A DNA stretch of 49,698 nucleotides from a virus (IMGVR_UViG_3300045988_135203:1-49698), one strand, 5' to 3'. Shown: positions 24,303 through 37,510, counted from the first letter of the stretch. A program made the numbers and translations. The notes: generated by a model not told the origin, from the sequence alone.

Positions 24303-24328
24303 TACCTCTTTCTTTATTTTATGTATTT

Positions 24329-25070: not shown

Positions 25071-25094
25071 TCCTCTCTGTTTTTCTATGTCTTT

Positions 25095-25471: not shown

Positions 25472-25477
25472 GATGAA

Positions 25478-25592
25478 TTCGGCCTAGCACAGTCGTGCGC
25501 CGGCCGCTCAAAAGTCAAGATGTAATTTTACACAAAAATAATTTTCGTCAAATTGCACAAAAAAGAAAGAGTCTGAATATTCAGACTCTTTC
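25478..25592 (+). ncRNA. Candidate ~115-nt antisense/small RNA of cassette 2
   Basis: Bounded by a consensus promoter and an intrinsic terminator, with a conserved 5' GC hairpin. Confidence 0.4.
25565..25592 (+). terminator. Intrinsic terminator of the cassette 2 RNA
   Basis: AAAGAGTCTGAATATTCAGACTCTTT. Confidence 0.5.
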
Positions 25593-25639
25593 ACAAGAAA
25601 GGAGGAAAACAAAATGATTAGTCAAAACCTTTCGGTTTA

Positions 25640-25690
25640 GAAGAGGGGTGAGAGGGAATCGAACCCTCTCGAACAACCGTTCCCCCTGTG
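25640..25690 (-). ncRNA. tRNA T-arm/acceptor-like minihelix immediately after stop of 25693-26061
   Basis: GAGAGGGTTCGATTCCCTCTC (7-bp stem with a canonical GGTTCGATTCC T-loop) flanked by GGGGG...CCCC. There are no D or anticodon arms. Confidence 0.3.
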
Positions 25691-25692
25691 GC

Positions 25693-26061
25693 TTACTCTA
25701 CAAAGAAGTAAGCCTTTCTTTTCTCAACCTCTCTCTGGATTTTTAAATCTTTAACAAGAGCGGTCAGCAGAGAAGTGATTCTCTGGTTTGTGAGTTCCGC
25801 AAGCTCTGGAACCTCTTTAGCAAGCTCTGTTGCTGTGAATCTCTTTTCGGATTCTGTAAGGAAGTTTACAATGATTTCTTTCAGCTTTTCATTTTCTTCC
25901 TGAGTAGCTGTTTTCTTTGTAGAAGATTTCTTCTTTTCAAAACCCTCTTTGATTTTTTCAAGCTTCTCAACCAGTTCAACAGAACCGTTGTTTTCTTTTA
26001 CAACCTTGATTGCCATTTCCATTGCTACTACGTTTGTAAGTTTGTTTGTCATACTTATCAC
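25693..26061 (-). CDS. Winged-helix-like protein, paralog family 1
   Basis: 122 aa carrying ELTNQRITSLLTALVKDLKIQREVEKRKAYF, with a class B promoter at 26091-26119. Confidence 0.65.
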   Translation of the reverse strand: MISMTNKLTNVVAMEMAIKVVKENNGSVELVEKLEKIKEGFEKKKSSTKKTATQEENEKLKEIIVNFLTESEKRFTATELAKEVPELAELTNQRITSLLTALVKDLKIQREVEKRKAYFFVE

Positions 26062-26090
26062 CTTTTCCTTTTCTTTTATTTTATGTATTT

Positions 26091-26119
26091 ATTATACCAT
26101 TTCTTTATTTAGTTGTCAA
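26091..26119 (-). promoter_or_regulatory. Class B promoter for 25693-26061
   Basis: TTGACA-N17-TATAAT. Confidence 0.6.
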
Positions 26120-26145
26120 GTCTTTTTTTATTTTTTCTTAAGGGC

Positions 26146-26313
26146 TTACTCGATGTAAGCCCCAGCGACATTCTTAATAGTGCCGTCCTGTCCAAAGAAG
26201 ATTACGTTATCCGCAACCACTCTTACACCTTTGCATCTCATCTCATGGCGAAAACCATAATCCTCTTTAAATCTTTTAATAAACTCTCTTTTTGTCATTT
26301 TTGTGTTTGTCAT
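26146..26313 (-). CDS. Small hypothetical protein (55 aa), absent from the ORF track
   Basis: ATG with a GAGAGG RBS and a class B promoter at 26345-26373. Confidence 0.45.
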   Translation of the reverse strand: MTNTKMTKREFIKRFKEDYGFRHEMRCKGVRVVADNVIFFGQDGTIKNVAGAYIE

Positions 26314-26344
26314 AACTTATTACCTCTCTTTTTCTTTTTTCTTT

Positions 26345-26373
26345 ATTATAGCACCAACTGCTAGGTTTGTCAA
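26345..26373 (-). promoter_or_regulatory. Class B promoter for 26146-26313
   Basis: TTGACA-N17-TGCTATAAT. Confidence 0.55.
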
Positions 26374-26451
26374 GTATTTTTTTAAATTTTTTTGAAGGCT
26401 TTACGCTTAACACTTGACTAAAAGCATTTACCTTTACTTCTTTATGTCTTT

Positions 26452-26480
26452 ATTATAACACCAGAAGTTTAATTTGTCAA
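26452..26480 (-). promoter_or_regulatory. Class B promoter (tandem, ~110 bp upstream of 26345-26373)
   Basis: TTGACA-N17-TATAAT. Confidence 0.5.
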
Positions 26481-26495
26481 GAGGTTTTTCAAATT

Positions 26496-26750
26496 TTATT
26501 TTGAAAGATTAACCTCAGCATCAACAGGTTCTACTCTCTGTACTCTATTAAAAGCTCGAATCTGCCCAGTAGCAAGATTAACTGCCATTACATTGTCTTT
26601 GTAGCTGTCAAGGAAAATACCACTATTTCTATCAACAACCATGTACAATCCCACTTCATCAACACCACTTCTTTTACTAAAGAATGTGCTTCCCACTGTC
26701 AACTTGTAAACATAAATTCCTGTCGCTTTCCTATCATAATTAACTTTCAT
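26496..26750 (-). CDS. Hypothetical protein
   Basis: 84 aa with a promoter at 26784-26812. Confidence 0.55.
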   Translation of the reverse strand: MKVNYDRKATGIYVYKLTVGSTFFSKRSGVDEVGLYMVVDRNSGIFLDSYKDNVMAVNLATGQIRAFNRVQRVEPVDAEVNLSK

Positions 26751-26783
26751 TTTTTATCATTTCCTTTCCTTTATTATGTATAT

Positions 26784-26812
26784 ATAATATCATATTTTTT
26801 ATTGTTTGTCAA
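26784..26812 (-). promoter_or_regulatory. Class B-like promoter for 26496-26750
   Basis: TTGACA-N17-TATTAT. Confidence 0.5.
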
Positions 26813-26828
26813 TAGTTTTTTAAAATTT

Positions 26829-27311
26829 TTACAGATTTTTGGTTTCGCTCACAAAATACTTTGCATGATAAACATTTAATAAATCTTTAACTGCCTTGCT
26901 TTGATTTTGATTTGCACAATAGCAATTAATTAAAACATATTTGTCAATATCAATATAATTGCAAGGTACGTGACAATCTTTAAGTTTTTTAACAAGCTCT
27001 TCCCAGCCAACAGCTTTTAAAACAGTTGCTTCTACTTTCCACAGTTTGTCTTTTCTTGCTTTCTCTTCACCCCATTTTACAAGCCAAACACCAATTAAAT
27101 TAGCAAGAAAAGTTACAACAACTTTTTGCCATAATGGAAAATCTGCGACTGTATAAATAAGAACCACATTATAATAACCATAATATCCCGCAGAAATAAG
27201 GCTTGCGACTGTTTTTCCTGATTTAATTGTTACAATAGATTTAATAGTTGAAAAGATAACGTTTACAACTGTCAATAATGAAAATAAAATTAATACATTC
27301 ATTGATTTCAC
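26829..27311 (-). CDS. Membrane protein (multiple N-terminal TM helices) with Cys-rich C-terminal domain
   Basis: 160 aa with a class B promoter at 27331-27359. Confidence 0.6.
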   Translation of the reverse strand: MKSMNVLILFSLLTVVNVIFSTIKSIVTIKSGKTVASLISAGYYGYYNVVLIYTVADFPLWQKVVVTFLANLIGVWLVKWGEEKARKDKLWKVEATVLKAVGWEELVKKLKDCHVPCNYIDIDKYVLINCYCANQNQSKAVKDLLNVYHAKYFVSETKNL

Positions 27312-27330
27312 TCACTTTCTTTTTTCTTTT

Positions 27331-27359
27331 ATTATACACCTACTTATGGATTTTGTCAA
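27331..27359 (-). promoter_or_regulatory. Class B promoter for 26829-27311
   Basis: TTGACA-N17-TATAAT. Confidence 0.6.
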
Positions 27360-27367
27360 GGACTATT

Positions 27368-27658
27368 TTATAAAATAGTCCTTGTTGTAATTTTTAATAA
27401 TTCACCTGTATCTTTATCATAATAAATAGTTGCTTCTGTACCAATAGGACAAACATAATTATCAATAGAATAAATTATATCACCCTGTTTATTTTCAAAT
27501 TCCATAGTAGTAGAATCACTGTCCTCGTGGTAAATTTTCTTTGTTGCAGTAACTTCTGTATATCTTACATTGCTAGTGTAATTTTCTGTGCTGATAATTA
27601 CTATTATGATAATAACCGCCAAACCAATTCCGGCTAATACATCACGCCATACTTTCAT
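27368..27658 (-). CDS. Membrane-anchored small protein
   Basis: 96 aa with an N-terminal TM/signal segment. Confidence 0.55.
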   Translation of the reverse strand: MKVWRDVLAGIGLAVIIIIVIISTENYTSNVRYTEVTATKKIYHEDSDSTTMEFENKQGDIIYSIDNYVCPIGTEATIYYDKDTGELLKITTRTIL

Positions 27659-27660
27659 AA

Positions 27661-27789
27661 CTATATTTCCTCACTTTCTTTAAAAATTTCTTCAATCAGC
27701 TTTTTAGTTTCTTCTACACCAACGTATAAAGCTGACTTTTCGATTGCATCAAATAAAAGTGTTTTTGCTTCCATTTCTTTTTCTGTCAT
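27661..27789 (-). CDS. Small hypothetical protein (42 aa), absent from the ORF track
   Basis: ATG after a GAGAGG RBS, with a class B promoter at 27821-27849. Confidence 0.4.
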   Translation of the reverse strand: MTEKEMEAKTLLFDAIEKSALYVGVEETKKLIEEIFKESEEI

Positions 27790-27820
27790 GCTTTTTATCT
27801 CCTCTCTTAACTATGCACTT

Positions 27821-27849
27821 ATTATATCATAGGGGCTGAGGTTTGTCAA
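27821..27849 (-). promoter_or_regulatory. Class B promoter with the -35 inside a GGGG...CCCC hairpin
   Basis: GGGGGTTGACAAACCTCAGCCCC hairpin immediately after the stop of 27866-28204, then TATAAT. Confidence 0.55.
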
Positions 27850-27865
27850 CCCCCATTTTTAATTT

Positions 27866-28204
27866 TTAATGATTAAACCGCAAATAAATTTTAGTCCAGC
27901 TGAAGCCGAAACGCTCTTCTAACTGTTTTTCTTCTTCTGAATTCGTTTCCATGATTGAAATTTTCATAATTGTATCCCAGTCAATAGTTGTAAACCATGT
28001 TCCTTCTTTCATGCCTTTACTAAAGCGGAAATTGTCAAGAATGTAATCCATTACTTTCTGTTTTTTAATTGTTTTCATACATTCTTCCAGAGAAATAACC
28101 TGACTGCTAAAAACTGGTTTAGTTTCAAAACCTGTTACTTTCCATCCGCTAATTTTACTTTCAATATTTAACATAATTATCAACCTCTCTTTCATTTGAT
28201 ACAT
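27866..28204 (-). CDS. Hypothetical protein
   Basis: 112 aa with a class B promoter at 28207-28235. Confidence 0.55.
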   Translation of the reverse strand: MYQMKERLIIMLNIESKISGWKVTGFETKPVFSSQVISLEECMKTIKKQKVMDYILDNFRFSKGMKEGTWFTTIDWDTIMKISIMETNSEEEKQLEERFGFSWTKIYLRFNH

Positions 28205-28206
28205 TT

Positions 28207-28235
28207 ATTATATCACAGGGGATTGAACTTGTCAA
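28207..28235 (-). promoter_or_regulatory. Class B promoter for 27866-28204, hairpin-embedded -35
   Basis: TTGACA-N17-TGTGATATAAT. Confidence 0.55.
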
Positions 28236-28244
28236 CCCCTAATT

Positions 28245-28478
28245 TTATAAAATTCCTTCAATCTCACAACATTTGCGACAAGCATTAATGCAATCATTCC
28301 ATAAGCCATCAGTGCTTGCGTACTCTGTTAAAATTTCATCATCCCATCCATCCTCAAGACCGCAAGCAAGCCAAACATCAATTACTACATCTTCACTGAT
28401 ATTTTCTCTGATAAATGTATCCATCTGCCTGAGTAAGTTCTTTCTAATTCTAACCATTTCATTTCTTGATACTTTCAT
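28245..28478 (-). CDS. Small Cys-containing hypothetical protein
   Basis: 77 aa with a promoter at 28511-28539. Confidence 0.5.
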   Translation of the reverse strand: MKVSRNEMVRIRKNLLRQMDTFIRENISEDVVIDVWLACGLEDGWDDEILTEYASTDGLWNDCINACRKCCEIEGIL

Positions 28479-28510
28479 TTGCTTGTTCCCCTTTCCTTAT
28501 CTTTAAATAT

Positions 28511-28539
28511 AGTATACTATAGGTGTGCGGTTTTGTCAA
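28511..28539 (-). promoter_or_regulatory. Class B promoter for 28245-28478
   Basis: TTGACA-N17-TATACT. Confidence 0.5.
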
Positions 28540-28637
28540 TATACAAAATAACCAAAAGTATAAAGCAATTTTTGTGCGGTTTGCCGATTGGTAGAATTTT
28601 GGGATTTTCTAGGCGTTATTTTTGTGCAAAATGTCTA

Positions 28638-28667
28638 TTGACAAATAGTTGCTTCGTGTGTTATAAT
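28638..28667 (+). promoter_or_regulatory. Plus-strand promoter of cassette 3
   Basis: TTGACA-N18-TATAAT. Confidence 0.55.
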
Positions 28668-28673
28668 TGAAGT

Positions 28674-28795
28674 TCGGGCCTAAGCGCACGCTGCCGGCCC
28701 GCCGATTTGTCAAGATGTAATTTTGCACAAAGATTCAGCTAAAACTTTGTGAAAACCGCACAAAAAACGCCGAATTAAAAATTCAGCGTTTTGCA
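28674..28795 (+). ncRNA. Candidate ~120-nt small RNA of cassette 3
   Basis: Promoter-to-terminator unit with a conserved GC hairpin. Confidence 0.4.
28762..28795 (+). terminator. Intrinsic terminator of the cassette 3 RNA
   Basis: AAAAAACGCCGAATTAAAAATTCAGCGTTTT. Confidence 0.5.
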
Positions 28796-28806
28796 CAAAA
28801 ATTAAA

Positions 28807-29181
28807 TTATTTTCTTGGCATACTTAGTACAATTTTATACTTGGTGCCATTCAGTTCAAAAAAGAACTCACGTTCATTGTTAGTCACATCTAAATTTTCT
28901 GCTCCCAGTTTTTCGACCGATTCTGTCAAAGCTGTGATGATAGCTTGCTTTCCTTTATTTTCTGGTTTTTTTCTTTTGGAAGTATCAAACTTGTAAACAG
29001 TTGTTTTTTTCTTGCGGTCTGCCTGTCGTGCTTTTTTAGATGCTTTTTCCTGTTCTGGTGTCAATGTAAAAAGTTTTTCCCCCTTGTCTATTCTTCTGTC
29101 ATCTTCTAACATTTGCGTTGCTTCTTCTCTGCTAATGTCTAGCAGTTCCATGTTACGCTCTATAATTTCGTTGTCTGTCAT
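28807..29181 (-). CDS. Lys-rich protein, paralog family 2
   Basis: 124 aa, paralog of 23440-23838, directly downstream of the wHTH paralog 29228-29608. Confidence 0.65.
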   Translation of the reverse strand: MTDNEIIERNMELLDISREEATQMLEDDRRIDKGEKLFTLTPEQEKASKKARQADRKKKTTVYKFDTSKRKKPENKGKQAIITALTESVEKLGAENLDVTNNEREFFFELNGTKYKIVLSMPRK

Positions 29182-29227
29182 TTTTAAGCCCTTTCTTTAA
29201 GTGATAGGGGGCTTTCGCCCCCTTTAA

Positions 29228-29608
29228 TTATTTTGCAAAAAAGTATGCTTTGCGTTTTTCAACCATTCTGTCAACTTTGCCTTCACTGCAAAGGGAAGTT
29301 ACAAGAGAAGTTACACGCTGATTTGAAAGTTCTTTCAATTCTTCAACTTCTTTCATCAGCTCAGAAACAGTAAGTCCATTGCCCGTATCCACAAGGTATT
29401 CAACAATTTTTTCTTTTAAGTGTTCGTTTTCAAGCTGAGTTGCTGTTGGCTTACGATTTGCGGAAGATTTTTTGTTTACCTGTACAAGCATTTTGTCAAG
29501 TTTCTCGATAACCTCTGTATACTTCTCTACATCAGTTTCTTTCAGAACCTCAAGTGCGATTTCCAGTGCCATAGCGTTTGTCATTTTTTTGTTTGTCATA
29601 CTTATCAA
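29228..29608 (-). CDS. Winged-helix-like protein, paralog family 1
   Basis: 126 aa carrying MTNAMALEIALEVLKE ... ELSNQRVTSLVTSLCSEGKVDRMVEKRKAYF. Confidence 0.65.
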   Translation of the reverse strand: MISMTNKKMTNAMALEIALEVLKETDVEKYTEVIEKLDKMLVQVNKKSSANRKPTATQLENEHLKEKIVEYLVDTGNGLTVSELMKEVEELKELSNQRVTSLVTSLCSEGKVDRMVEKRKAYFFAK

Positions 29609-29662
29609 TTCCTTTCTTAATAAGAGATTTATTATTTGTTTTCTATGTCTTTATTATACCAC

Positions 29663-29690
29663 CTGTAGTCTTGTTTGTCAAGACCTTTTT
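29663..29690 (-). promoter_or_regulatory. Class B promoter for 29228-29608
   Basis: TTGACA-N16-TATAAT. Confidence 0.55.
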
Positions 29691-29799
29691 TATTTTTCTT
29701 TTGGGGGACTTCTCATTGTTTTTCACTTCCTTTCTTTATCTTGTAATAATAATACCATATTTTTTACATTTTGTCAATAGTTTTTTTAAATTTTTTTCT

Positions 29800-30522
29800 T
29801 TATTTTTCCCAGAGTCCAGTTCTCATTTTTTTGTGCTGTCTATAACAATAATGACAGATTTCTTTTTCAATCAGAACGTCCTCAAGTCCAGTGTGTTTTT
29901 CTACAAAAGTATTATCTTTTGTAATAAATCTGTAAAGAATTTCGGCTGTCACTCTTAACTGTCCTCTAGTTGTGAGATAGTTATTTTCTTCACAAAATCT
30001 TCTGTATGATGGCATTTTACACACTACATCACGAGCCATTTTCATAGTATCACAGATTTCCAAACCATAAGGAAAGAAATATCTATACTTTGATTTAGTC
30101 AGCCAACGCTGAGTAGTGTTTAATGTGCCATAGTCAAAACGCATATTGTGAGCGAAAACTTTTGTTACGTTGTAACGTTCACAGCACTCTACAAGTTGTT
30201 TTCTGATATTGTAGAAAGATGTTAAAATTCTTTTACCGCTTTTAATATCTTCCCAATACATCGGAATTTTATTTGCATAGTACGCAGATTTCATAAGCTG
30301 TTTTTCATCAAGAAAAATGTCAGCATTTACGAATGACCATGTTTCAAAAACTTCACCAGTACGCTTGTTAATGACAGCAAAACCGCAATCATAAACCCAC
30401 ATATTTGTTGGAAGTACCTGTTCTAATGTTTTGTCTACTGGACAAGTTTCTGTATCAATTACAATGGAGTAATCCATTCTTCTGTCAATCTTATTAGTGT
30501 TTGGTCTGTTGATAAATTCCAT
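29800..30522 (-). CDS. DEDDh-type 3'-5' exonuclease (DnaQ/RNase T-like)
   Basis: Exo I SIVIDTETCP (DxE), Exo II FAHNMRFDYGTL and Exo III HTGLEDVLIEKEI (H-x4-D) in canonical order. Confidence 0.75.
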   Translation of the reverse strand: MEFINRPNTNKIDRRMDYSIVIDTETCPVDKTLEQVLPTNMWVYDCGFAVINKRTGEVFETWSFVNADIFLDEKQLMKSAYYANKIPMYWEDIKSGKRILTSFYNIRKQLVECCERYNVTKVFAHNMRFDYGTLNTTQRWLTKSKYRYFFPYGLEICDTMKMARDVVCKMPSYRRFCEENNYLTTRGQLRVTAEILYRFITKDNTFVEKHTGLEDVLIEKEICHYCYRQHKKMRTGLWEK

Positions 30523-30555
30523 TTTTGTTTACCTCTCTCTCATCTCTATGTCTTT

Positions 30556-30584
30556 ATTATATCACCAGTGAAGAGGTTTGTCAA
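30556..30584 (-). promoter_or_regulatory. Class B promoter for 29800-30522
   Basis: TTGACA-N17-TGATATAAT. Confidence 0.6.
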
Positions 30585-30756
30585 GAACTTTTTTAACTTT
30601 TTTGTAAGTTTTTTTATTTGCTTTCTTGTCTCTCTCTTCCTTACAAGTATTATAATACCACAAGCCACTAAAGATTGCAAGGATTATTTTTAAAAAAAAT
30701 TGCACAAAATAGATGGTTAATTTTTGTATAAAATGACCAATAGAAAAAGTGTACAA
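30562..30756 (-). CDS. Doubtful small ORF overlapping operator repeats and a promoter
   Basis: 64 aa, hydrophobic N-terminus. It reads through TTGTGCAA repeats and the class B promoter of the next gene. Confidence 0.2.
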   Translation of the reverse strand: MYTFSIGHFIQKLTIYFVQFFLKIILAIFSGLWYYNTCKEERDKKANKKTYKKVKKVLDKPLHW

Positions 30757-30866
30757 AGATTAAGGTGCGGTTTGTCATTTTTTTGGTAATCCTGCACAAA
30801 GATATTTTTCATCACATCGCACAATTTCGGGAATTTTTTTGTTATTATTTTTGTCTATTTTGCCTA

Positions 30867-30895
30867 TTGACAAAAGTTGCTCCCTGTGGTATAAT
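30867..30895 (+). promoter_or_regulatory. Plus-strand promoter of cassette 4
   Basis: TTGACA-N17-TGGTATAAT. Confidence 0.6.
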
Positions 30896-30943
30896 GGAAT
30901 TTCGGGCCTTGGCGTAAGTGAAGCGCTCGCCTGCGGCCCGCCA

Positions 30944-30972
30944 ATTTTATCACCTTTTGGAAAGTTTGTCAA
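30944..30972 (-). promoter_or_regulatory. Minus-strand promoter of cassette 4, face-to-face with 30867-30895
   Basis: TTGACA-N17-TAAAAT about 50 bp from the plus promoter, so the transcripts overlap across the GC hairpin. Confidence 0.5.
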
Positions 30973-30987
30973 GTAATAAAATTGCAC

Positions 30988-31018
30988 AAAAAAGAGGGCT
31001 TAAAGCCCTCTTTATTTT
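30988..31018. terminator. Bidirectional intrinsic terminator in cassette 4
   Basis: AAAAAAGAGGGCTTAAAGCCCTCTTTATTTT. Confidence 0.65.
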
Positions 31019-31206
31019 ACATCTACCATTTTAATTTTGTGAGGCTTGTTTTTTGCCTCCGCATAACTTGTGGTTTCTTTTACAACTTTTTTACTTTCCA
31101 TAATCTGATAAACAACTTTTCTCATTTTTAATACCTCTCTTTTCTTCTTTTCTATGATTTAATTATACTATAGGGCTTGGCTTTTGTCAAGCCCCTTTTT
31201 CATTTT

Positions 31207-31464
31207 TTAATTTTTTTCAATGGTTCTAAAGTCCATGTTTAATGCAAGCAAGACCTCTTCTGGAGTAAGGCTGTGACCCTCACAAATAACGTTTAAATTT
31301 GTTCTGTCAATCAGTCGAATCCAATCTTCTGACCTTTCAACGATGATACAAGGTTCATCAGATAAACAAGGACAATAACATTTACAATCAGCTCTTCCTT
31401 CACCATGCTGTCCTGCATAGCATCCCTCGAGTTCCGCACATTTATAACATTTACTTTCTACCAT
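31207..31464 (-). CDS. Small Cys-rich protein
   Basis: 85 aa with CYKC...CKCYCPC. Confidence 0.5.
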   Translation of the reverse strand: MVESKCYKCAELEGCYAGQHGEGRADCKCYCPCLSDEPCIIVERSEDWIRLIDRTNLNVICEGHSLTPEEVLLALNMDFRTIEKN

Positions 31465-31496
31465 CTTTTATTTCCTCTCTTTCTTTTGATACATTT

Positions 31497-31525
31497 ATTA
31501 TAACACCTTTTGGTTTACTTGTCAA
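31497..31525 (-). promoter_or_regulatory. Class B promoter for 31207-31464
   Basis: TTGACA-N17-TATAAT. Confidence 0.6.
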
Positions 31526-31541
31526 TACTTTTGTTTAAAAA

Positions 31542-31736
31542 TTAAAAATTATTTGAATCCTTTTTAATTTTTGTATCTGCTGTACTATTATTCAAATAGT
31601 TAAACATTGATAAAATTTCCTTTAACTCCTCAATAGAAACAAGGTTATTATTATTAATAATAACAACCCCGTTGGAATCTCCAACACGCAACTCTGCATT
31701 TGCATTTTCCAATTTCATTGTAACTGTTTTCATCAT
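31542..31736 (-). CDS. Small hypothetical protein
   Basis: 64 aa with a class B promoter at 31771-31799. Confidence 0.45.
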   Translation of the reverse strand: MMKTVTMKLENANAELRVGDSNGVVIINNNNLVSIEELKEILSMFNYLNNSTADTKIKKDSNNF

Positions 31737-31770
31737 GCTTTATTCCTCTCTTTCTTTATCTTATACACTT

Positions 31771-31799
31771 ATTATAACAGAAGCTCAAATCTTTGTCAA
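31771..31799 (-). promoter_or_regulatory. Class B promoter for 31542-31736
   Basis: TTGACA-N17-TATAAT. Confidence 0.6.
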
Positions 31800-31816
31800 T
31801 ACCTTTTTTGGAACTC

Positions 31817-32296
31817 TCAGAAAAATTTTCTGAGAGTTCCAATAATGTCGTTTACATCAAAACTGTTTTCGCCCCACTCTTCTCTGTTGCGTTCTTCATC
31901 ATCAAAGAGCCATCCGTCACAATCAACAACTGTACTTTTTGGTGTGCCATAATTTACAATTTTGACTTCATCCCACTCGACACTCGGCAGATGTTTTTCG
32001 AGCCATGCAAGTTTTACACTTGTTACCGCTGTGTTATAAGCTGTCGAACCGCTTTTGCTTAACCAACTCACAATACCGATTCTATAACCGTTTCCCTGTA
32101 ATTTATGTAACATTCTTGCAAATACTGAGAAGTTGAAAAGCGGTCTTGCGATTGCATAAGGCGTGGTATCCTCATTTTCCAGATAGTCTAACCAGTTTTC
32201 TACACCATAGAAGTTAGCTAAAGTACCATCCATATCAAAGTAAATAGTTCCTTTTGTCTCCATCATTTCTTTAATTGTGTTCATCATAATCATCAA
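31817..32296 (-). CDS. HAD-superfamily 5'(3')-deoxyribonucleotidase-like hydrolase, paralog 1
   Basis: HAD motif I FDMDGTLA (DxDGT) and motif IV LFDDE. About 45 percent identical to 36422-36889. Confidence 0.7.
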   Translation of the reverse strand: MMIMMNTIKEMMETKGTIYFDMDGTLANFYGVENWLDYLENEDTTPYAIARPLFNFSVFARMLHKLQGNGYRIGIVSWLSKSGSTAYNTAVTSVKLAWLEKHLPSVEWDEVKIVNYGTPKSTVVDCDGWLFDDEERNREEWGENSFDVNDIIGTLRKFF

Positions 32297-32324
32297 TTCC
32301 TTTCTTTTCCTTTTCTTTAATTAT

Positions 32325-32353
32325 ATTATATACTATCTTTTATAATTTGTCAA
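32325..32353 (-). promoter_or_regulatory. Class B promoter for 31817-32296
   Basis: TTGACA-N17-TATAAT. Confidence 0.55.
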
Positions 32354-32374
32354 CAATTTTTTTTAAATTTTTTC

Positions 32375-32806
32375 TCAGATTTTTGTAATCCCTCTATCTC
32401 TTAAATATTCACAAAAACTGTCGGCATCCAGTAAATCCGCAAGTTCTTTAATTGTAAGATTTTCTTTCTTGTATACACAACGAAATTCAATAGGTTTAAA
32501 GTTTTTTTCTGTAATTCTGTCTCCGCCTGTATAAAAATCATCAACGTTACTAAGTACAACCATTGGTTTTCTAAACAGTGTTTTTTCAAGTCTACCGTTC
32601 ATAAAAAAACCATCTTTTACTAAACTAACAAGCTGAGGAAAATCTCTGATTAAACCTGTCCAGTTTTCAGCATCTTTTGGCTCAATGTATCTTGCGTGTC
32701 GCCAGACGCTAGTATCAACAAATTCTTTCTGTCCCTCAAGTCTGTATTCAAATCTGTAATTATAAACCTCTTTCATTTTTATTTTCCTCTCTTTCATTTG
32801 ATACAT
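32375..32806 (-). CDS. Hypothetical protein
   Basis: 143 aa with a class B promoter at 32809-32837. Confidence 0.55.
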   Translation of the reverse strand: MYQMKERKIKMKEVYNYRFEYRLEGQKEFVDTSVWRHARYIEPKDAENWTGLIRDFPQLVSLVKDGFFMNGRLEKTLFRKPMVVLSNVDDFYTGGDRITEKNFKPIEFRCVYKKENLTIKELADLLDADSFCEYLRDRGITKI

Positions 32807-32808
32807 TT

Positions 32809-32837
32809 ATTATAATCCTCTTTGCTTTATTTGTCAA
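32809..32837 (-). promoter_or_regulatory. Class B promoter for 32375-32806
   Basis: TTGACA-N17-TATAAT. Confidence 0.6.
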
Positions 32838-33087
32838 GTAATATTTTATAAATTTTTTCAACTAATTCTTTCTGCATTTCATACATTTTATCTTCGTTAT
32901 CTTCTTCTAAATAAAGACGAATAATTTCGTATGTGTCATCCATGTATCTGATTTCTACCCAACCTTCATAATAAACAGTAATAACACCTTTAGAAGTCTT
33001 TCTGTTTTTTCTAGTATCTTTAATCTCAACTTTCTTAATGTTCTGTAATCCATAAATTGTATTTTCAACTTTAATATATTTTTCCAT
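32827..33087 (-). CDS. Hypothetical protein
   Basis: 86 aa. Confidence 0.5.
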   Translation of the reverse strand: MEKYIKVENTIYGLQNIKKVEIKDTRKNRKTSKGVITVYYEGWVEIRYMDDTYEIIRLYLEEDNEDKMYEMQKELVEKIYKILLDK

Positions 33088-33116
33088 CTCTTTTTCCTCT
33101 CTCTCTTAACTTGATT

Positions 33117-33145
33117 ATAGTATATCACATGAGATTGAATTTGTC
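33117..33145 (-). promoter_or_regulatory. Class B promoter for 32827-33087
   Basis: TTGACA-N17-TGATATACT. Confidence 0.5.
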
Positions 33146-33154
33146 AACACATTT

Positions 33155-33379
33155 TTAAATTTCTTTTTTTGCTTCTTCTGTTGTTAATCCATAACCTTTC
33201 CAAGGGTCGTACTTTCCAAACAGAATTGTTTCATCAACAGTATCACACATTTTATTATTGACATTGTAATCATAATAAAACCATTTTTTACAATCCCATT
33301 TTAACGGACAGTGGTAGCAAGTTGTTGTAGTTGCAACAGTGTCTATATTAATTGCCATTAACGCTTTTATCTTAATCAT
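33155..33379 (-). CDS. Small Cys-containing hypothetical protein (start trimmed to MIKIKAL)
   Basis: The N-terminal 65 codons of the track ORF are cassette 5 read antisense, with the same MQFYYLT artefact as 30775-30987. Confidence 0.45.
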   Translation of the reverse strand: MIKIKALMAINIDTVATTTTCYHCPLKWDCKKWFYYDYNVNNKMCDTVDETILFGKYDPWKGYGLTTEEAKKEI

Positions 33380-33529
33380 TTTATTTACCCCTCTTCCTTT
33401 ATCTTGATTATAGTATAGCATGGTTACGGGAAAATGTCTATAGGCAAATTGCACAAAGATTTCGCTGTAAAATAGTTGAATTTCTCTGTTTTGCACAAAA
33501 ACCGGCCGCAGCGCTTGTCGCCGGCCGGC

Positions 33530-33558
33530 CATTTTATCACACTTCTTCATTTCTGTCA
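33530..33558 (-). promoter_or_regulatory. Minus-strand promoter of cassette 5
   Basis: TTGACA-N17-TGATAAAAT. Its leader contains the GC hairpin and TTGTGCAA repeats and runs into 33155-33379. Confidence 0.5.
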
Positions 33559-33573
33559 AGTAGTAAAATTGCA

Positions 33574-33608
33574 CAAAAAAAGAGCTGAAATTTCAGCTCT
33601 TTTTTTTT
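33574..33608. terminator. Bidirectional intrinsic terminator in cassette 5
   Basis: AAAAAAAGAGCTGAAATTTCAGCTCTTTTTTTTT. Confidence 0.65.
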
Positions 33609-33792
33609 ACTGTTCCTTTGTTACACTTTTAACAAGTGCCCGCAATTCCGCAACCCCAAAGCAGTCCATGTATTCGCCCATTGCCTTTTTTAATTCTGAG
33701 GTTCTTTTGGCTCTGAGCTGTCCTATCATCCATTCATATTCTTCTTTGTTTAATGTGTAAGGACAACAACCATTTTCTTTTAATTCATACAT
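33607..33792 (-). CDS. Small Cys-containing hypothetical protein
   Basis: 61 aa with a class B promoter at 33827-33855. Confidence 0.5.
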   Translation of the reverse strand: MYELKENGCCPYTLNKEEYEWMIGQLRAKRTSELKKAMGEYMDCFGVAELRALVKSVTKEQ

Positions 33793-33826
33793 TTTTTATT
33801 CCTCTCTTTCTTTATCTTATGTACTT

Positions 33827-33855
33827 ATTATACCAGAGGTTTGGGCTTTTGTCAA
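33827..33855 (-). promoter_or_regulatory. Class B promoter for 33607-33792
   Basis: TTGACA-N17-TATAAT. Confidence 0.6.
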
Positions 33856-34103
33856 GCCCTTTCCTCACTTTTATTCATGTTTGTTACAAACTCTGTACTA
33901 AATTTATCATAGACTTCTGGACTTACTTTGTCTGCGATAAATTCCATTACTGTACAAATACCATACATGAAACTATTGTTTCCATGCTTTGCATCATAGC
34001 AACCTTTGAATAACTTCGGTCCTTTTGATACCATGTCATCATAAACCAGATGATAAGCGGCTTTTAAAGTTTTTTCATATTCCTGTTCTGTCATAATTAT
34101 CAA
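33852..34103 (-). CDS. Hypothetical protein
   Basis: 83 aa with a promoter at 34133-34161. Confidence 0.5.
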   Translation of the reverse strand: MIIMTEQEYEKTLKAAYHLVYDDMVSKGPKLFKGCYDAKHGNNSFMYGICTVMEFIADKVSPEVYDKFSTEFVTNMNKSEERA

Positions 34104-34132
34104 TTCCTTTCTTTATCTCTTTTGTTGATTAT

Positions 34133-34161
34133 AGTATACCATAGGTTTAGAAGTTTGTCAA
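34133..34161 (-). promoter_or_regulatory. Class B promoter for 33852-34103
   Basis: TTGACA-N17-TATACT. Confidence 0.5.
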
Positions 34162-34192
34162 GACTTTTTATTTTTTTCTTTGATTTATTTTC

Positions 34193-34315
34193 TATGATAT
34201 AATTAAGTTGTCAAGAGGTTTTTTAAGGTATTTTTTGTGACGAGTGCCGATTTTACTTCACACAATTATGCGTCGTGGAGAGGTTGGTTGCTGTATCTCC
34301 TCTTGACACCTTAAT
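34193..34315. repeat. ~28-bp inverted repeat separated by ~60 bp, downstream of a class B promoter
   Basis: CCTCTTGACA(A/C)CTTAATTATATCATAG is present in both orientations at 34193-34224 and 34285-34312. Confidence 0.55.
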
Positions 34316-34342
34316 TATATCATAGGGGGTTGAGTTTGTCAA
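34314..34342 (-). promoter_or_regulatory. Class B promoter firing into the inverted-repeat region 34193-34315
   Basis: TTGACA-N17-TATAAT with hairpin-embedded -35. No ORF lies between it and the next promoter. Confidence 0.5.
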
Positions 34343-34358
34343 CCCCATTTTTTATTTT

Positions 34359-34706
34359 TTATCTTTCTTTCAGACTATGCATTACGATTGTATGACCGCA
34401 TTTATCACAAGTGTAATAGTATTCATCATCACCACTTCTATGATGTACTGTACTTGTAAACTTGTAAGGCTCATTACATTCTGTACAATATCCGTTGTTC
34501 CATGCTTCATCATCACCTTTACTCTGTAATGTAAATAATCCACCTATACCACATCCAATAGCAACCGCAAGTATAATTCCAATTATCCATTTTACTATTG
34601 GTTTATTGTTTTCAGCAATAGTATTTACAATACACATTGCCATGAAACCACCAACTATTAAACTCATAAATATTGATACTGAAATAAATTCTGCCATGTA
34701 ACTCAT
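34359..34706 (-). CDS. Membrane protein with C-terminal zinc ribbon
   Basis: 115 aa with two TM helices followed by CTEC...CDKCGH. Confidence 0.55.
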   Translation of the reverse strand: MSYMAEFISVSIFMSLIVGGFMAMCIVNTIAENNKPIVKWIIGIILAVAIGCGIGGLFTLQSKGDDEAWNNGYCTECNEPYKFTSTVHHRSGDDEYYYTCDKCGHTIVMHSLKER

Positions 34707-34737
34707 TTTATTTACCTCTCTTTCTTTAACTGTCTTT

Positions 34738-34766
34738 ATTATAGCACAAGGGGTTTAGTTTGTCAA
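34738..34766 (-). promoter_or_regulatory. Class B promoter for 34359-34706
   Basis: TTGACA-N17-TGCTATAAT. Confidence 0.6.
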
Positions 34767-34770
34767 CCCT

Positions 34771-35067
34771 TTATTTAAAAAATTCTTTCGCTGTTTCTCT
34801 ATATCTTTTTGGAACACCTGTGATAAATTTTTCTTTATCTTCTTCTGATAATGTTCTTCTTAATTGTTTTGGTGTTACTGAAAAAGGATTTAGATGATAT
34901 TTAATCATTAGTGGAAATACTTTAATAAATGTAAGTGTTTTAATCATGGTTATAATCTTGCCAAGGATTTCAATAGGCATCCAGAACCATTCCCACTCAT
35001 TGTAATAACTTAAATAACTCAGTGTGTACATTGCGATAATAATTGTTACTACTAATAATGTTTTCAT
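34771..35067 (-). CDS. Small membrane protein
   Basis: 98 aa with an N-terminal TM. Confidence 0.5.
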   Translation of the reverse strand: MKTLLVVTIIIAMYTLSYLSYYNEWEWFWMPIEILGKIITMIKTLTFIKVFPLMIKYHLNPFSVTPKQLRRTLSEEDKEKFITGVPKRYRETAKEFFK

Positions 35068-35098
35068 TTTATTTACCTCTCTCTCTTAACTTGATTAT

Positions 35099-35127
35099 AG
35101 TATATCACAAGGGGTTGAATTTGTCAA
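35099..35127 (-). promoter_or_regulatory. Class B promoter for 34771-35067, -35 in a perfect 8-bp hairpin
   Basis: GGGGTTGACAAATTCAACCCC then TGTGATATACT. Confidence 0.55.
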
Positions 35128-35147
35128 CCCCTTTTTGAATTTTTTTT
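35111..35147. terminator. Hairpin plus T-run containing the -35 of a class B promoter
   Basis: GGGGTTGAATTTGTCAACCCC followed by TTTTTGAATTTTTTTT on the plus strand, with an A-rich stretch before it. Confidence 0.5.
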
Positions 35148-35292
35148 AAATTAATTGTAACAGATAACTTCCATCATTCTGTGCAAGTATTCTGACAATT
35201 TCCTCTCGATTCTGCGAGAGAATTTCCCCTGTTGAGCAATCCACAAGTGCGGTTTCATAACCTTTTTCAATGTAAAGTCCTAAAATCATCAT
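35146..35292 (-). CDS. Small hypothetical protein (48 aa), absent from the ORF track
   Basis: ORF filling the gap between neighbours, with a GAGG RBS. Confidence 0.35.
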   Translation of the reverse strand: MMILGLYIEKGYETALVDCSTGEILSQNREEIVRILAQNDGSYLLQLI

Positions 35293-35308
35293 AAAAAACA
35301 CCTCTTTC

Positions 35309-35464
35309 TTAAATAAGTTTTAATAAGTTACCGTTTTTATCAAAACAAAAGCCTACAGTTTCATCTGATACAAGTTCAAAATAGTCTGAGTCATCTACTG
35401 GAATCCATATTCCAGCCTTTCTAAAGATTTCTAATAATTTTTCTTTATCAGTTTTTTTGACCAT
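35309..35464 (-). CDS. Small hypothetical protein (51 aa), absent from the ORF track
   Basis: ATG after GAGAGG, with a class B promoter at 35491-35519. Confidence 0.4.
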   Translation of the reverse strand: MVKKTDKEKLLEIFRKAGIWIPVDDSDYFELVSDETVGFCFDKNGNLLKLI

Positions 35465-35490
35465 CTCTTTTACCTCTCTTTCTAATACCT

Positions 35491-35519
35491 ATTATACCAG
35501 TCCTTGACTCATTTGTCAA
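35491..35519 (-). promoter_or_regulatory. Class B promoter for 35309-35464
   Basis: TTGACA-N17-TATAAT. Confidence 0.55.
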
Positions 35520-35793
35520 GGACTATTTTTTTAATTTCATCATCATAGATGTTATTATCAGTGTGCATTGTATCCATGATAAGCTTTACATTATCACCAG
35601 TTTCAAGGTTTGTACCATCCTCAAAATAATAATCCCAGTCATTTCCAGTAGAATCTGTGAAAGTTACAAGGTTGTCATTCTGTACTTTTACAACCTCTGC
35701 GGTTCTGGTGTATGTACTTTCATAAGTTCCTACACCACCAATTACTGCGATACCTAACATAACTGCTAATACTGTTTTAATCATCCTCATCAT
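35509..35793 (-). CDS. Secreted or membrane-anchored small protein (signal peptide)
   Basis: Hydrophobic N-terminus MIKTVLAVMLGIAVIGGVGT. Confidence 0.55.
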   Translation of the reverse strand: MMRMIKTVLAVMLGIAVIGGVGTYESTYTRTAEVVKVQNDNLVTFTDSTGNDWDYYFEDGTNLETGDNVKLIMDTMHTDNNIYDDEIKKIVLDK

Positions 35794-35808
35794 TTCCTCT
35801 CTTTCATT

Positions 35809-35837
35809 TGATACATTAAGTATAACATCAAGCTATT
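35809..35837 (-). promoter_or_regulatory. Class B promoter for 35509-35793
   Basis: TTGACA-N17-TATACT. Confidence 0.5.
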
Positions 35838-35905
35838 TATTTGTCAATATACAAAATAACCAATTTCGGGATGCAAATTATTTAATATTTTGTACAATTT
35901 TCCTA

Positions 35906-35935
35906 TTGACAAACTGCGGCGACCTGTGGTATAAT
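35906..35935 (+). promoter_or_regulatory. Plus-strand promoter of cassette 6, followed after about 10 nt by a terminator
   Basis: TTGACA-N18-TGGTATAAT. Confidence 0.55.
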
Positions 35936-35949
35936 TAGTCAGGGCAGCA

Positions 35950-35978
35950 GGCGACCATAGCGGTCGCCCCTTTCTTTT
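35950..35978 (+). terminator. Terminator of the cassette 6 mini-transcript
   Basis: GGCGACCATAGCGGTCGCC then CCTTTCTTTT. Confidence 0.5.
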
Positions 35979-36123
35979 AGTATTCTACGATTGTATACAT
36001 CAACCGCATTAACTGTTCATTAGTAAACTCTCCTGACTCACAATCCTCACAGAACATAACTGTTAATGGACTCTCAAAGCCTAACTGTTTAATTACGTTA
36101 TCCATCATTTCTTTTACTGTCAT
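35977..36123 (-). CDS. Small hypothetical protein (48 aa), absent from the ORF track
   Basis: ATG after a GGAGG RBS, with a class B promoter at 36156-36184. Confidence 0.4.
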   Translation of the reverse strand: MTVKEMMDNVIKQLGFESPLTVMFCEDCESGEFTNEQLMRLMYTIVEY

Positions 36124-36155
36124 CTTTAATGACCTCCTTCTCTTAACTTGATTAT

Positions 36156-36184
36156 AGTATACTACAATCAGATTGATTTGTCAA
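36156..36184 (-). promoter_or_regulatory. Class B promoter for 35977-36123
   Basis: TTGACA-N17-TATACT. Confidence 0.5.
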
Positions 36185-36190
36185 TAGGAA

Positions 36191-36215
36191 AATAAGAATA
36201 TTTTAAAAATATTCT
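36191..36215. repeat. 23-bp perfect palindrome
   Basis: AAGAATATTTTAAAAATATTCTT in the ~250-bp noncoding stretch that also holds CTTTACTACT twice and the hairpin GAGAGAGAACGTTTGTTCTCTCTC. Confidence 0.5.
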
Positions 36216-36421
36216 TTGCTTTCTCACATTAATCCTTTACTACTAGATTGCTGTACTGTTGCGTTACTTTAATGCTTTACTACTTTAGTGTAATGAAGTC
36301 TCGCTACTCATTGCCTTTGTTATTCTATTAACACTCCTGTTAATTTTTTAACAATCTGCGTCCCACGAACCGCAGAACATAGATAGAGAGAGAACGTTTG
36401 TTCTCTCTCCTCTTTATCCTT

Positions 36422-36889
36422 TTACACATGATACTGCATCAACTCTTTAAGCACATCCATCATAACTATAGCGTCAACACTTGCACCTTGCCACTCTTCT
36501 CTATTCCTTGCCTCATCATCGAATAGTATTCCACCGCAAGGCACTGCCGCACGTTTGTTCTGTCCATACTCTGTTACAATAATCTCATTCCAATTAACAC
36601 TAGGAAGATGCTTCTTTAGCCATGTTCTCTTGGCTTCTTCTATTGCTTGCACATAATCAAGTGTTGCGTTCTTACTTGCCCATGAGATAACACCTAACTT
36701 ATAACCTCTCCTCTGTAGTGCATTGACGCGCCTTGCAAATAGACTCATGGTAACAAGCGGTCTTGCTATCTCATAAGGCACTGTGCTACCATGTACCAGA
36801 TAGTCAAGCCATCCTTCTACACTGTAAAGGTCTGCAATAGTTCCATCTAAGTCGAACCATAACCATTTATTATCTAACATACTAATCAC
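36422..36889 (-). CDS. HAD-superfamily 5'(3')-deoxyribonucleotidase-like hydrolase, paralog 2
   Basis: FDLDGTIA and LFDDEARNREEW, collinear with 31817-32296. Confidence 0.7.
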   Translation of the reverse strand: MISMLDNKWLWFDLDGTIADLYSVEGWLDYLVHGSTVPYEIARPLVTMSLFARRVNALQRRGYKLGVISWASKNATLDYVQAIEEAKRTWLKKHLPSVNWNEIIVTEYGQNKRAAVPCGGILFDDEARNREEWQGASVDAIVMMDVLKELMQYHV

Positions 36890-36921
36890 TCTTTCTTTCT
36901 TTTATCTTTATCTTTATATTT

Positions 36922-36950
36922 ATTATAACACCTTTGTGCTTGCTTGTCAA
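36922..36950 (-). promoter_or_regulatory. Class B promoter for 36422-36889
   Basis: TTGACA-N17-TGTTATAAT. Confidence 0.6.
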
Positions 36951-37022
36951 GACCTTTCTTTGTGTCTTTCTCTCTGCCTTGTCTTGCCTCTTGGCTCAAG
37001 GGTTAGCCTAGGCTAACCCGCT

Positions 37023-37142
37023 CTATACCAGATAAGTATCAATAATAGAGCCACCTACTCTCTTGGCAGTTAGTTCAGCCAAACTCTTGCTACTTGTTAA
37101 CAAAACGAATTTTCCCTCTTTATCAATAACCTCATACTTCAT
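37023..37142 (-). CDS. Small hypothetical protein (39 aa), absent from the ORF track
   Basis: ATG after GAGAGG, with a class B promoter at 37178-37206. Confidence 0.35.
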   Translation of the reverse strand: MKYEVIDKEGKFVLLTSSKSLAELTAKRVGGSIIDTYLV

Positions 37143-37177
37143 GTCTTTGTTCCTCTCTTTCTCTCTTTCTTTATACA

Positions 37178-37206
37178 TAGTATAGCACATAGGTAGTCAC
37201 TTGTCA
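37178..37206 (-). promoter_or_regulatory. Class B promoter for 37023-37142
   Basis: TTGACA-N17-TATACT. Confidence 0.5.
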
Positions 37207-37306
37207 AGAGGTTTTAATAAATTTTCTTTGTTAATTTCTTAACAAACGAACTACTAGGAATCGCAGTTTTCGTCATTAACTTACACTCCATGAGAACATC
37301 AAGTCT

Positions 37307-37335
37307 ATTATACCACAGATGCGCGGCGATGTCAA
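37307..37335 (-). promoter_or_regulatory. Class B promoter with a ~130-nt leader
   Basis: TTGACA-N17-TGGTATAAT. Confidence 0.55.
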
Positions 37336-37510
37336 TAGGTAATATTGCACAAAGATTAATTATTATTTTTGTGCAACATGCTGTTGTGCAATGTGACGAA
37401 TTTTGGGAAATGAACTAAAATATTTTTGTGCAAGTTTTTGCTTGACAAATTGTTGTGTCTCGTGTTATAATTGAAATTAGGGCCTGCGCCTGCGTCTACG
37501 GCCCGAGGAT
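37320..37510. promoter_or_regulatory. Regulatory cassette 7
   Basis: TTGCACAAA, TTTGTGCAA twice, TTGTGCAA and GAATTTTGGGAAATG, then promoter at 37443-37471 and hairpin AGGGCCTGCGCCTGCGTCTACGGCCCG. Confidence 0.45.
37443..37471 (+). promoter_or_regulatory. Plus-strand promoter of cassette 7 pointing towards the homing-endonuclease region
   Basis: TTGACA-N17-TATAAT followed by the AGGGCC...GGCCCG hairpin. Confidence 0.55.

Follow-up and report, generated by a model that had tools for sequence, protein, structure and literature searches.

Early phage promoters with the -35 hexamer embedded in a hairpin resemble the promoter/stem-loop cassettes of T4-like phages

Introduction

Promoter-early stem-loop (PeSL) cassettes have been described in the T4-like phages RB49/phi1, PST/T4 and nt-1/KVP40 (Arbiol et al. 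2010, PMC2839356; Comeau et al. 2014, PMC4122927). They consist of an AT-rich tract, a near-consensus sigma-70 promoter, a stem-loop that often has the form GGGG...CCCC, and the Shine-Dalgarno (SD) sequence and ATG of a small ORFan. PeSLs are abundant in hyperplastic regions, and their recombination gives rise to indels and mini-circles. Five positional subclasses are distinguished, one of which overlaps the -35 hexamer, and the stem-loop of an RB49/phi1 PeSL cut lacZ expression about as much as rrnB T1 (PMC2839356). Here, we analyze a 49,698-nucleotide stretch of viral DNA (IMGVR_UViG_3300045988_135203:1-49698, hereafter the window), in which a sequence-only reading had pointed to at least seven promoters whose TTGACA lies within a G/C-clamped hairpin just downstream of the preceding gene. 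We find that pairing in these hairpins is selected and that the arrangement is widespread among viruses, and we weigh the reading that it insulates neighboring early genes from one another.

Results

From ~22.9 to 37.3 kb, every gene of the window lies on the minus strand, and the genes are small and mostly unannotatable. This region holds an array of near-consensus promoters (Table 1). A consensus score of 12/12 was found at 29 sites in 20 kb, all of them 5' of an SD sequence and ATG, which in the array promoters lie 54-84 nt past the start of the -35 hexamer. The sequence TTGACAAA occurs 39 times in the window, against an expectation of 5.6 ± 2.5. To judge from sequence, the array sites carry every hallmark of host sigma-A/sigma-70 early promoters. 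The A content at positions -10 to -5 and -20 to -15 is 60-92% in promoters with and without a hairpin alike, and this A-tract is best read as an UP-element-like promoter feature.

At nine of the ~35 array promoters, about a quarter, the 3-8 nt just 5' of the -35 hexamer together with TTGA(C) can pair with the first half of the spacer. The seven promoters listed by the sequence-only reading all belong to this class, each folding with TTGA(C) in the hairpin, and its "at least seven" becomes nine with the addition of promoters 29681 and 35519 (promoters are named by the 5' end of the -35 hexamer). All nine score 11-12/12 against the consensus on the minus strand, most with a TG before the -10 hexamer. 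Their hairpins have energies of -7.5 to -17.1 kcal/mol (z of -1.9 to -6.6 against dinucleotide shuffles), loops of 4-9 nt and stems of 6-11 bp, rather than the 4-8 bp first proposed. Stem sequences are unlike between copies (GGGGTTGA/TCAACCCC, GGGCTTG/CAAGCCC, GGGCTT/AAGCCC, GTCTTG/CAAGAC and AGTCCTTGAC/GTCAAGGACT), with at least four unrelated ones in the window. The hairpins do stand immediately after the upstream gene, as had been noted, but the stop codon lies from -15 to +12 nt from the stem instead of within 0-10 nt. At promoter 27849, the stop codon of open reading frame (ORF) 27866-28204 is 9 nt 5' of the stem. At promoter 33855, the -35 hexamer itself provides the stop codon of ORF 33852-34103 (TGA within T-TGA-CA, 33852-33855), and therefore the 5' arm of the 33855 hairpin is coding sequence.

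Table 1. The early promoter array, its hairpin promoters and two related hairpins of the window. SD, Shine-Dalgarno; UTR, untranslated region; energies in kcal/mol.
Feature	Coordinates	Strand	-35	-10	Hairpin	Stem arms	Energy	z	Remarks
Early promoter array	22891-37335	-							~35 near-consensus TTGACA-17-TATAAT promoters in 14.5 kb, all preceded by an A-tract and followed by the SD and ATG of a small ORF
Promoter 27849	27821-27856	-	27844-27849	27821-27826	27829-27856	AUGGGGGUUGA/UCAGCCCCUAU	-17.1	-4.87	one U.G pair
Promoter 28235	28207-28241	-	28230-28235	28207-28212	28216-28241	GGGGUUGA/UCAA-U-CCCC	-11.4	-2.35	one bulge; upstream stop 3 nt from stem
Promoter 29681	29653-29685	-	29676-29681	29653-29658	29667-29685	GGUCUUG/CAAGACU	-7.7	-2.38	absent from the earlier list; plus strand terminator-like at 29668-29684
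Promoter 31190	31162-31195	-	31185-31190	31162-31167	31172-31195	GGGGCUUG/CAAGCCCU	-13.7	-3.64	upstream stop 11 nt from stem; plus strand terminator-like at 31173-31194
Promoter 33855	33827-33866	-	33850-33855	33827-33832	33836-33866	core GGGCUU/AAGCCC, outer GAGG/CCUC	-15.8	-3.41	
Promoter 34342	34314-34346	-	34337-34342	34314-34319	34326-34346	GGGGUUGA/UCAACCCC	-12.8	-3.69	plus strand terminator-like at 34326-34346
Promoter 34766	34738-34774	-	34761-34766	34738-34743	34746-34774	GGGUU/AACCC plus A:U extension	-7.5	-1.86	weakest
Promoter 35127	35099-35138	-	35122-35127	35099-35104 (TATACT)	35109-35133 (core)	AAGGGGUUGA/UCAACCCCUU	-17.0	-4.30	
Promoter 35519	35491-35525	-	35514-35519	35491-35496	35498-35525	UAGUCCUUGAC/GUCAAGGACUG	-16.9	-6.63	absent from the earlier list; 11-bp stem holds the whole TTGAC
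Degenerate relative	33119-33152	-				UGUGUUGA/UCAAUCUC	-2.9		promoter and 5' UTR module as at 35127, G/C clamp lost
Different-register hairpin	27355-27384	-				CAAGGACUAUUUUAUAAAAUAGUCCUUG			12-bp hairpin; 3' arm supplies TTG of the -35 of promoter 27359

The leaders 3' of the -10 hexamer can be grouped into a few sub-families of near-identical sequence (for example TATACTATAATCAAGTTAAGAGAGAGAGG) that are common to hairpin and plain promoters. Their groups include promoters 33147, 35127 and 36184, and others contain, for example, 28235, 31525, 32837 and 35847. The upstream and downstream halves of the modules thus reassort.

With a 240-aa protein from the array, we retrieved nine related viral contigs (51-96% identity). 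The window and these relatives together hold 182 non-redundant sense-strand promoters, 36 of which carry the hairpin, and many further stem variants occur in relatives L001-L008. After removal of duplicates shared with the relatives, 29 window promoters remained; 8 of them form hairpins of -7 kcal/mol or lower, compared to 1.1 ± 1.0 in 200 shuffles of flanks and spacers (maximum 4). The pooled family of window and relatives gave 37 hairpins vs. 5.4 ± 2.5 in shuffles. When flanks and spacers were swapped between promoters, the mean energy was -2.5 kcal/mol, compared to -4.7 kcal/mol for own pairs, and none of 5000 permutations reached the observed value.

Pairing is also retained where the sequence has changed. 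At site 35127, the window has GGGG/CCCC, L001 and L003 have AGGG/CCCT, and L002 has GGGC/GCCC; at site 27849, GGGGGTTGA/TCAGCCCC becomes GGGGCTTG/CAAGCCCC in L002. The L001 orthologue of the weak 34766 hairpin is far stronger, at -15.1 kcal/mol, and the 35519 hairpin is kept in L001-L003 with differences confined to the loop. In the subset of promoters that share a single register, 94.7% of cells pair and both partners have changed in 3 of 10 pairs; pairing falls to 58-64% when the partner is shifted by one column. The covariation score of this subset (0.134 vs. 0.078) was reached by 1 of 500 shuffles. The register itself is narrow: among ~79 local hairpins lying between -80 and +60 of promoters, 33 centre in a single 5-nt bin, at the 3' boundary of the -35 hexamer, and the rest are scattered upstream. 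Together, these results show that pairing in the hairpin promoters is selected, and on the covariation we reject chance or pure duplication as the origin of the stems.

The -35-in-hairpin architecture is widespread in phage groups other than the T4-like phages. At least 120 viral contig stretches contain the core motif GGGGTTGACA-N3-9-TCAACCCC, compared to 5 for a composition-matched control hairpin (GGGGTTCAGA...TGAACCCC), an excess of at least 24-fold. A -10 hexamer follows at 16-18 nt in 110 of the 145 core-motif matches listed (76%), where a few percent would be expected. The contigs range from ~20 to 195 kb and carry unrelated leaders and genes. Many of the matches are near-identical in sequence. 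Among 91 non-redundant viral promoters, positions outside the searched motif co-vary and lengthen the stem (p < 0.0005 and p = 0.007). One set of contigs that are not AT-rich (L018, L029, L047, L054, L055, L073, L101 and L102) shares GGCACAA(A/C)GGGGTTGACACAGCATCAACCCCATCCTATACT and has the -35-in-hairpin design without an A-tract; these presumably belong to a different host group.

Cultured phages also carry the arrangement. In Bacillus phage P59 (Herelleviridae, grown on Cytobacillus oceanisediminis; L135, MT151604.1 1-13303), the -35 hexamer TTGACT lies in a hairpin at 17 of the 18 promoters listed in the 13.3-kb terminal repeat, mostly GGGGTTGACT...AGTCAACCCC and with energies of -7 to -18.5 kcal/mol. 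Enterococcus phage EF24C has a hairpin at 1 of 16 promoters (at ~104,027 in NC_009904), and the U.G-containing arm TCAGCCCC recurs there and in the window. In the terminal repeat of Kayvirus 515A1, 1 of 6 promoters has an A/T-rich hairpin, and SPO1 has no -35-in-hairpin promoters. In the papers searched, on Herelleviridae and Bastille-like phages among others, we found no account of hairpins embedding the -35 hexamer, nor one of the promoter/stem-loop arrangement outside the T4-like phages.

We then compared hairpin and plain promoters for the gene that precedes them. Among 826 non-redundant consensus promoters, a co-directional ORF ends within 80 nt upstream of 201 of 227 hairpin promoters vs. 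398 of 599 plain promoters (odds ratio 3.9, p = 3e-11), a comparison in which the plain matches may include false promoters inside genes. The distance from stop codon to -35 hexamer in hairpin promoters has a median of 12 nt (interquartile range 5-17). The hairpin is thus tied to the gene junction and not to the promoter alone.

The window also contains a repeat family of seven cassettes (22800-23040, 25400-25640, 28595-28835, 30825-31065, 33400-33640, 35865-36105 and 37400-37640), in which a 12/12 consensus promoter on the plus strand (TTGACA at 25443, 28638, 30867, 35906 and 37442) leads straight into a GC-rich hairpin of ~45 nt, GAAATTCGGGCC...GGCCCGCC. Three cassettes have a convergent minus-strand promoter with the -10 hexamer TAAAAT (22920, 30972 and 33559). 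The motifs TTGTGCAA/TTGCACAA flank the cassettes, which have no Rfam match; a short sense/antisense RNA pair and a regulatory site are possibilities. Canonical gene-sense terminators lie at cassette borders on the minus strand (~23015-23032, 25565-25592, 30991-31013 and 33575-33606) and split the early region into blocks.

The remainder of the window identifies it as a segment of a phage genome, with the portal (45749-47386), large terminase (43568-45298) and a sigma-like protein (41253-42311) all on the plus strand. This portal shares 55% identity with the portal of an uncultured human-gut phage, compared to 39% with phAss-1 and 29% with Enterococcus Herelleviridae. The authors of the phAss-1 paper, which does not mention promoters or terminators, predicted a Clostridia host, and the host of the window phage, a gut phage, is probably Gram-positive and among the Clostridia. 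The sigma-like protein matches a phage sigma-factor family, has an HNH/endonuclease VII-like C-terminus and heads the plus-strand structural block; it may direct late transcription. A minus-strand tRNA cluster (185-4211) has seven genes (Lys, His, Asp, Tyr, Trp, Met and Ile), and a Thg1-like tRNA-His guanylyltransferase is encoded at 39398-40267 (minus strand). No suppressor tRNA occurs in the window, and the distant relative phAss-1 recodes TAG. An Rfam scan of the window matched tRNAs only, and a megablast search of 27.5-35.5 kb against cultured phages gave no match. Of 10 ORFs scanned in the early array, just one reached the Pfam gathering score. Two minus-strand ORFs of the array (31817-32296 and 36422-36889) are paralogous NT5C-like 5'-nucleotidases, one above and one below that score.

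Discussion

The modules described here resemble PeSLs in several respects. They have a near-consensus TTGACA-N17-TATAAT promoter with an upstream AT-rich tract and a stem-loop that is often a G-run paired with a C-run, and they are bounded 5' by the upstream stop codon and 3' by the SD and start codon of a small gene. Many copies occur in a plastic early region, whose gene content differs between relatives at 85-95% identity. Comparison of the window with three relatives (L001-L003) also places indel and replacement breakpoints in the modules, which make up 23% of the sequence and hold 18 of the 34 distinct breakpoints (p = 1e-4), an enrichment confounded by the fact that the modules are the intergenic space. 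There is no hairpin-specific excess of breakpoints (4 of 9 hairpin vs. 10 of 26 plain modules, p = 1.0), which indicates that shuffling tracks the conserved promoter/leader module and not the hairpin. The arrangement also differs from PeSLs. In the window phage and its relatives one register dominates, in which the -35 hexamer contributes to the 5' arm and the loop and the spacer supplies the 3' arm, whereas the commonest stem-loop positions in phi1 are between the -35 and -10 hexamers or overlapping the -10. Here, only ~20-25% of promoters carry the hairpin, and the window phage is not T4-like; its relatives are phAss-1-like and Herelleviridae-like. Every architectural feature of PeSLs that can be tested is present, and by that measure the hairpin promoters are a PeSL-type element in a new phage lineage. 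Because the phage is not T4-like, the resemblance is architectural rather than one of homology, and it is probably convergent. The array is also reminiscent of the terminal-repeat "host-takeover" arrays of Herelleviridae (SPO1-like) phages, in which dense, strong sigma-A promoters each drive one or a few small genes; the hairpin is present at nearly all such promoters listed in P59, at one in 515A1 and at none in SPO1.

The association with an upstream ORF favors insulation between cassettes (by termination, attenuation or 3'-end capping) rather than a device intrinsic to the promoter. We lean, with moderate confidence, toward the reading that the hairpin promoters are PeSL-type composite promoter/stem-loop modules that insulate adjacent early gene cassettes. 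Each module comprises, in order, an A-rich UP-element-like tract, the -35 TTGACA, a 17-nt spacer with TG, the -10 hexamer, a leader of ~30 nt, the SD and the start codon (ATG) of a small gene. Transcripts running through it would fold into a G/C-clamped hairpin within a few nucleotides past the upstream stop codon. The most likely role of this hairpin would be to attenuate or terminate read-through from upstream promoters, to cap the 3' end of the upstream mRNA, or both. Antisense transcription would meet the hairpin abutted by the promoter A-tract, which would form a canonical intrinsic terminator, and the next transcript would start from the same DNA. The single fixed register may be explained because only the bases before the -35 hexamer and those of the spacer can pair without displacing the A-tract or the extended -10. 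The hairpin would thus act in RNA, and termination on the sense strand is proposed by analogy with PeSLs.

The sequence-only reading had proposed that each hairpin can terminate transcription in both directions, and we scanned both strands for the intrinsic terminator consensus, defined as a G/C-rich hairpin with a U-rich tract (5 or more T in 8) beginning 0-2 nt past the stem. Antisense (plus-strand) matches to this consensus lie at 29668, 31173, 34326, 35109 and 35499, and in this respect the antisense half of the proposal is supported. There, the modules are like bidirectional intrinsic (Rho-independent) terminators, with an A-tract before a G/C-clamped stem-loop that antisense transcription reads as hairpin plus U-tract; they differ from such terminators in that the gene-sense U-tract is replaced by the spacer end and the -10 hexamer (for example UUGUGAUAU), which is A/U-rich, with 2-4 T in 8-9 nt and no U-tract. 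The plus-strand T-runs cited for the proposal are real but are the reverse complement of the A-tract, which plain promoters carry in the same position, and they are therefore not independent evidence of terminator design. Antisense transcripts had further been assigned to the plus-strand promoters of the seven-copy cassettes. These promoters each have their own close downstream hairpin, and the -35 hairpins are thus at most a back-up stop for them. We also considered a bidirectional promoter, in which the inverted repeat would supply a second, plus-strand -35 hexamer, and rejected it because the plus strand has no -10 hexamer after TTGAAT at 35.1 kb.

Several results weigh against insulation by termination as we propose it. 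In the consensus scan, the gene-sense strand has a terminator at 0 of 9 sites, and T is not enriched 3' of the stem in hairpin relative to plain promoters (2.58 vs. 2.65 in 8 nt). Canonical sense terminators (a hairpin followed by TTTTTTGTGC) occur elsewhere in the array, so the phage can build proper ones. Tests of the strand of action conflict. In stems of the family, G.T exceeds A.C by 15 to 4, which favors the sense strand, although the sequences are related and one arm is constrained by the -35 hexamer; the U.G-containing arm that recurs in EF24C points the same way; fold energies are equal on the two strands of the family (20 vs. 24, p = 0.71) and favor neither; and hairpin promoters have a somewhat purer A-run beside the stem, which favors the antisense strand. 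Single-transition variants across viral contigs gave 4 and 1 promoter-context matches, counts that are too small to separate the strands, and many of the loci were double-strand palindromes fitting both patterns. The genes of the P59 terminal repeat are almost all co-directional, yet a hairpin is present at nearly every promoter listed, which argues against antisense control as the main driver. Finally, insulation is not general, since ~60% of family promoters lack any hairpin nearby.

The hairpin could instead stabilize RNA 3' ends or form a processing barrier without terminating transcription. Read-through transcripts would be cleaved within the A/U-rich stretch of -10 hexamer and leader, and the upstream mRNA would be shielded from 3'-exonucleases by the hairpin. 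This fits the gene-sense strand without a U-tract, the short distance between the hairpins and the end of a preceding co-directional gene, and the G.U pairs on the sense strand. It also fits a promoter-less intergenic G/C hairpin between co-directional genes (29206-29223), which has GAAA (a GNRA tetraloop) on the sense strand and a T-rich tail on the antisense strand only. However, the PeSL reporter assay, in which downstream expression was lowered, is a better fit to termination, and compaction alone would have to explain why the hairpin overlaps the promoter rather than standing anywhere in the 3' UTR. We regard a purely stabilizing role as unlikely, though worth keeping in view.

A role at the DNA level, of a kind earlier speculated upon for the GGGG...CCCC of PeSLs, would make the inverted repeat the target of a recombination or DNA-binding protein, or a promoter of strand exchange that marks cassette boundaries for shuffling. 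The breakpoint enrichment in promoter modules and the joining of the same 5' UTR sub-families to hairpin and non-hairpin upstream halves are in keeping with this, as are the equal fold energies of the two strands and the large excess of perfect Watson-Crick stems over single-wobble variants in promoter context (110 vs. 4 and 1). Yet breakpoints do not prefer hairpin modules over plain ones, and since the modules are essentially the intergenic space, their enrichment would be expected for any cassette exchange. The stems vary freely in sequence, which speaks against a sequence-specific binding protein, and no recombinase was identified nearby. This alternative therefore appears improbable.

We would give a similarly low probability to a hand-over device that recycles RNA polymerase (RNAP), or to a structured boundary for cassette exchange akin to an integron attC site. 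At canonical terminators in vitro, E. coli RNAP has been reported to undergo recycling termination and facilitated re-initiation (Kang et al. 2020; Harden et al. 2020; both as summarized in PMC11347151). A hairpin terminator that adjoins a promoter, or as here lies inside it, has the geometry in which retained RNAP could re-initiate. RNAP would free its RNA at the hairpin while over the next -10 hexamer, stay on the DNA, rebind sigma and re-initiate in place. If so, each early cassette would yield a discrete transcript without loss of the polymerase, and scarce host RNAP would be kept on the injected DNA.

Could the hairpin serve the promoter itself? G/C clamps or a cruciform at the -35 hexamer might tune promoter strength, the response to supercoiling or the binding of a regulator, for example in early shut-off. 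The register is fixed relative to the -35 hexamer, the hairpin class is a defined promoter subset, and the G/C content of its spacer and of positions -36 to -39 is very unlike that of plain promoters. The co-variation nevertheless keeps pairing and not sequence, and stems of 6-11 bp with loops of 4-9 nt form cruciforms poorly. The strong tie to a nearby preceding co-directional ORF is also a feature that such a device need not have, and we find a promoter-intrinsic function quite improbable. Least probable of all is a single promoter variant spread without function by duplication and recombination within and between phages: the promoter modules are clearly duplicated and mosaic and many viral matches are near-identical, but complementarity is kept in many independent stem sequences, with compensatory changes at orthologous sites, flank co-variation in the 91 non-redundant promoters and the excess over the control hairpin.

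As composite modules that would insulate one early cassette and start the next, the hairpin promoters may provide compact insulator/promoter parts for synthetic biology. Bacillus phage P59, as the best cultured system, and Enterococcus phage EF24C offer a natural test bed for termination by sigma-A RNAP without a U-tract and for coupled re-initiation. In phage genomes from metagenomes, early or host-takeover regions and the boundaries of cassettes can be located by the simple signature of A-tract, GGGG, TTGACA, complementary spacer and -10 hexamer. Previously reported from T4-like phages with Gram-negative hosts alone, the composite promoter/stem-loop cassette extends to unrelated phages of Gram-positive hosts and to at least 120 uncultured viral contigs, and its stereotyped form, in which the stem-loop embeds the -35 hexamer, would represent a general design solution for densely packed early genes.

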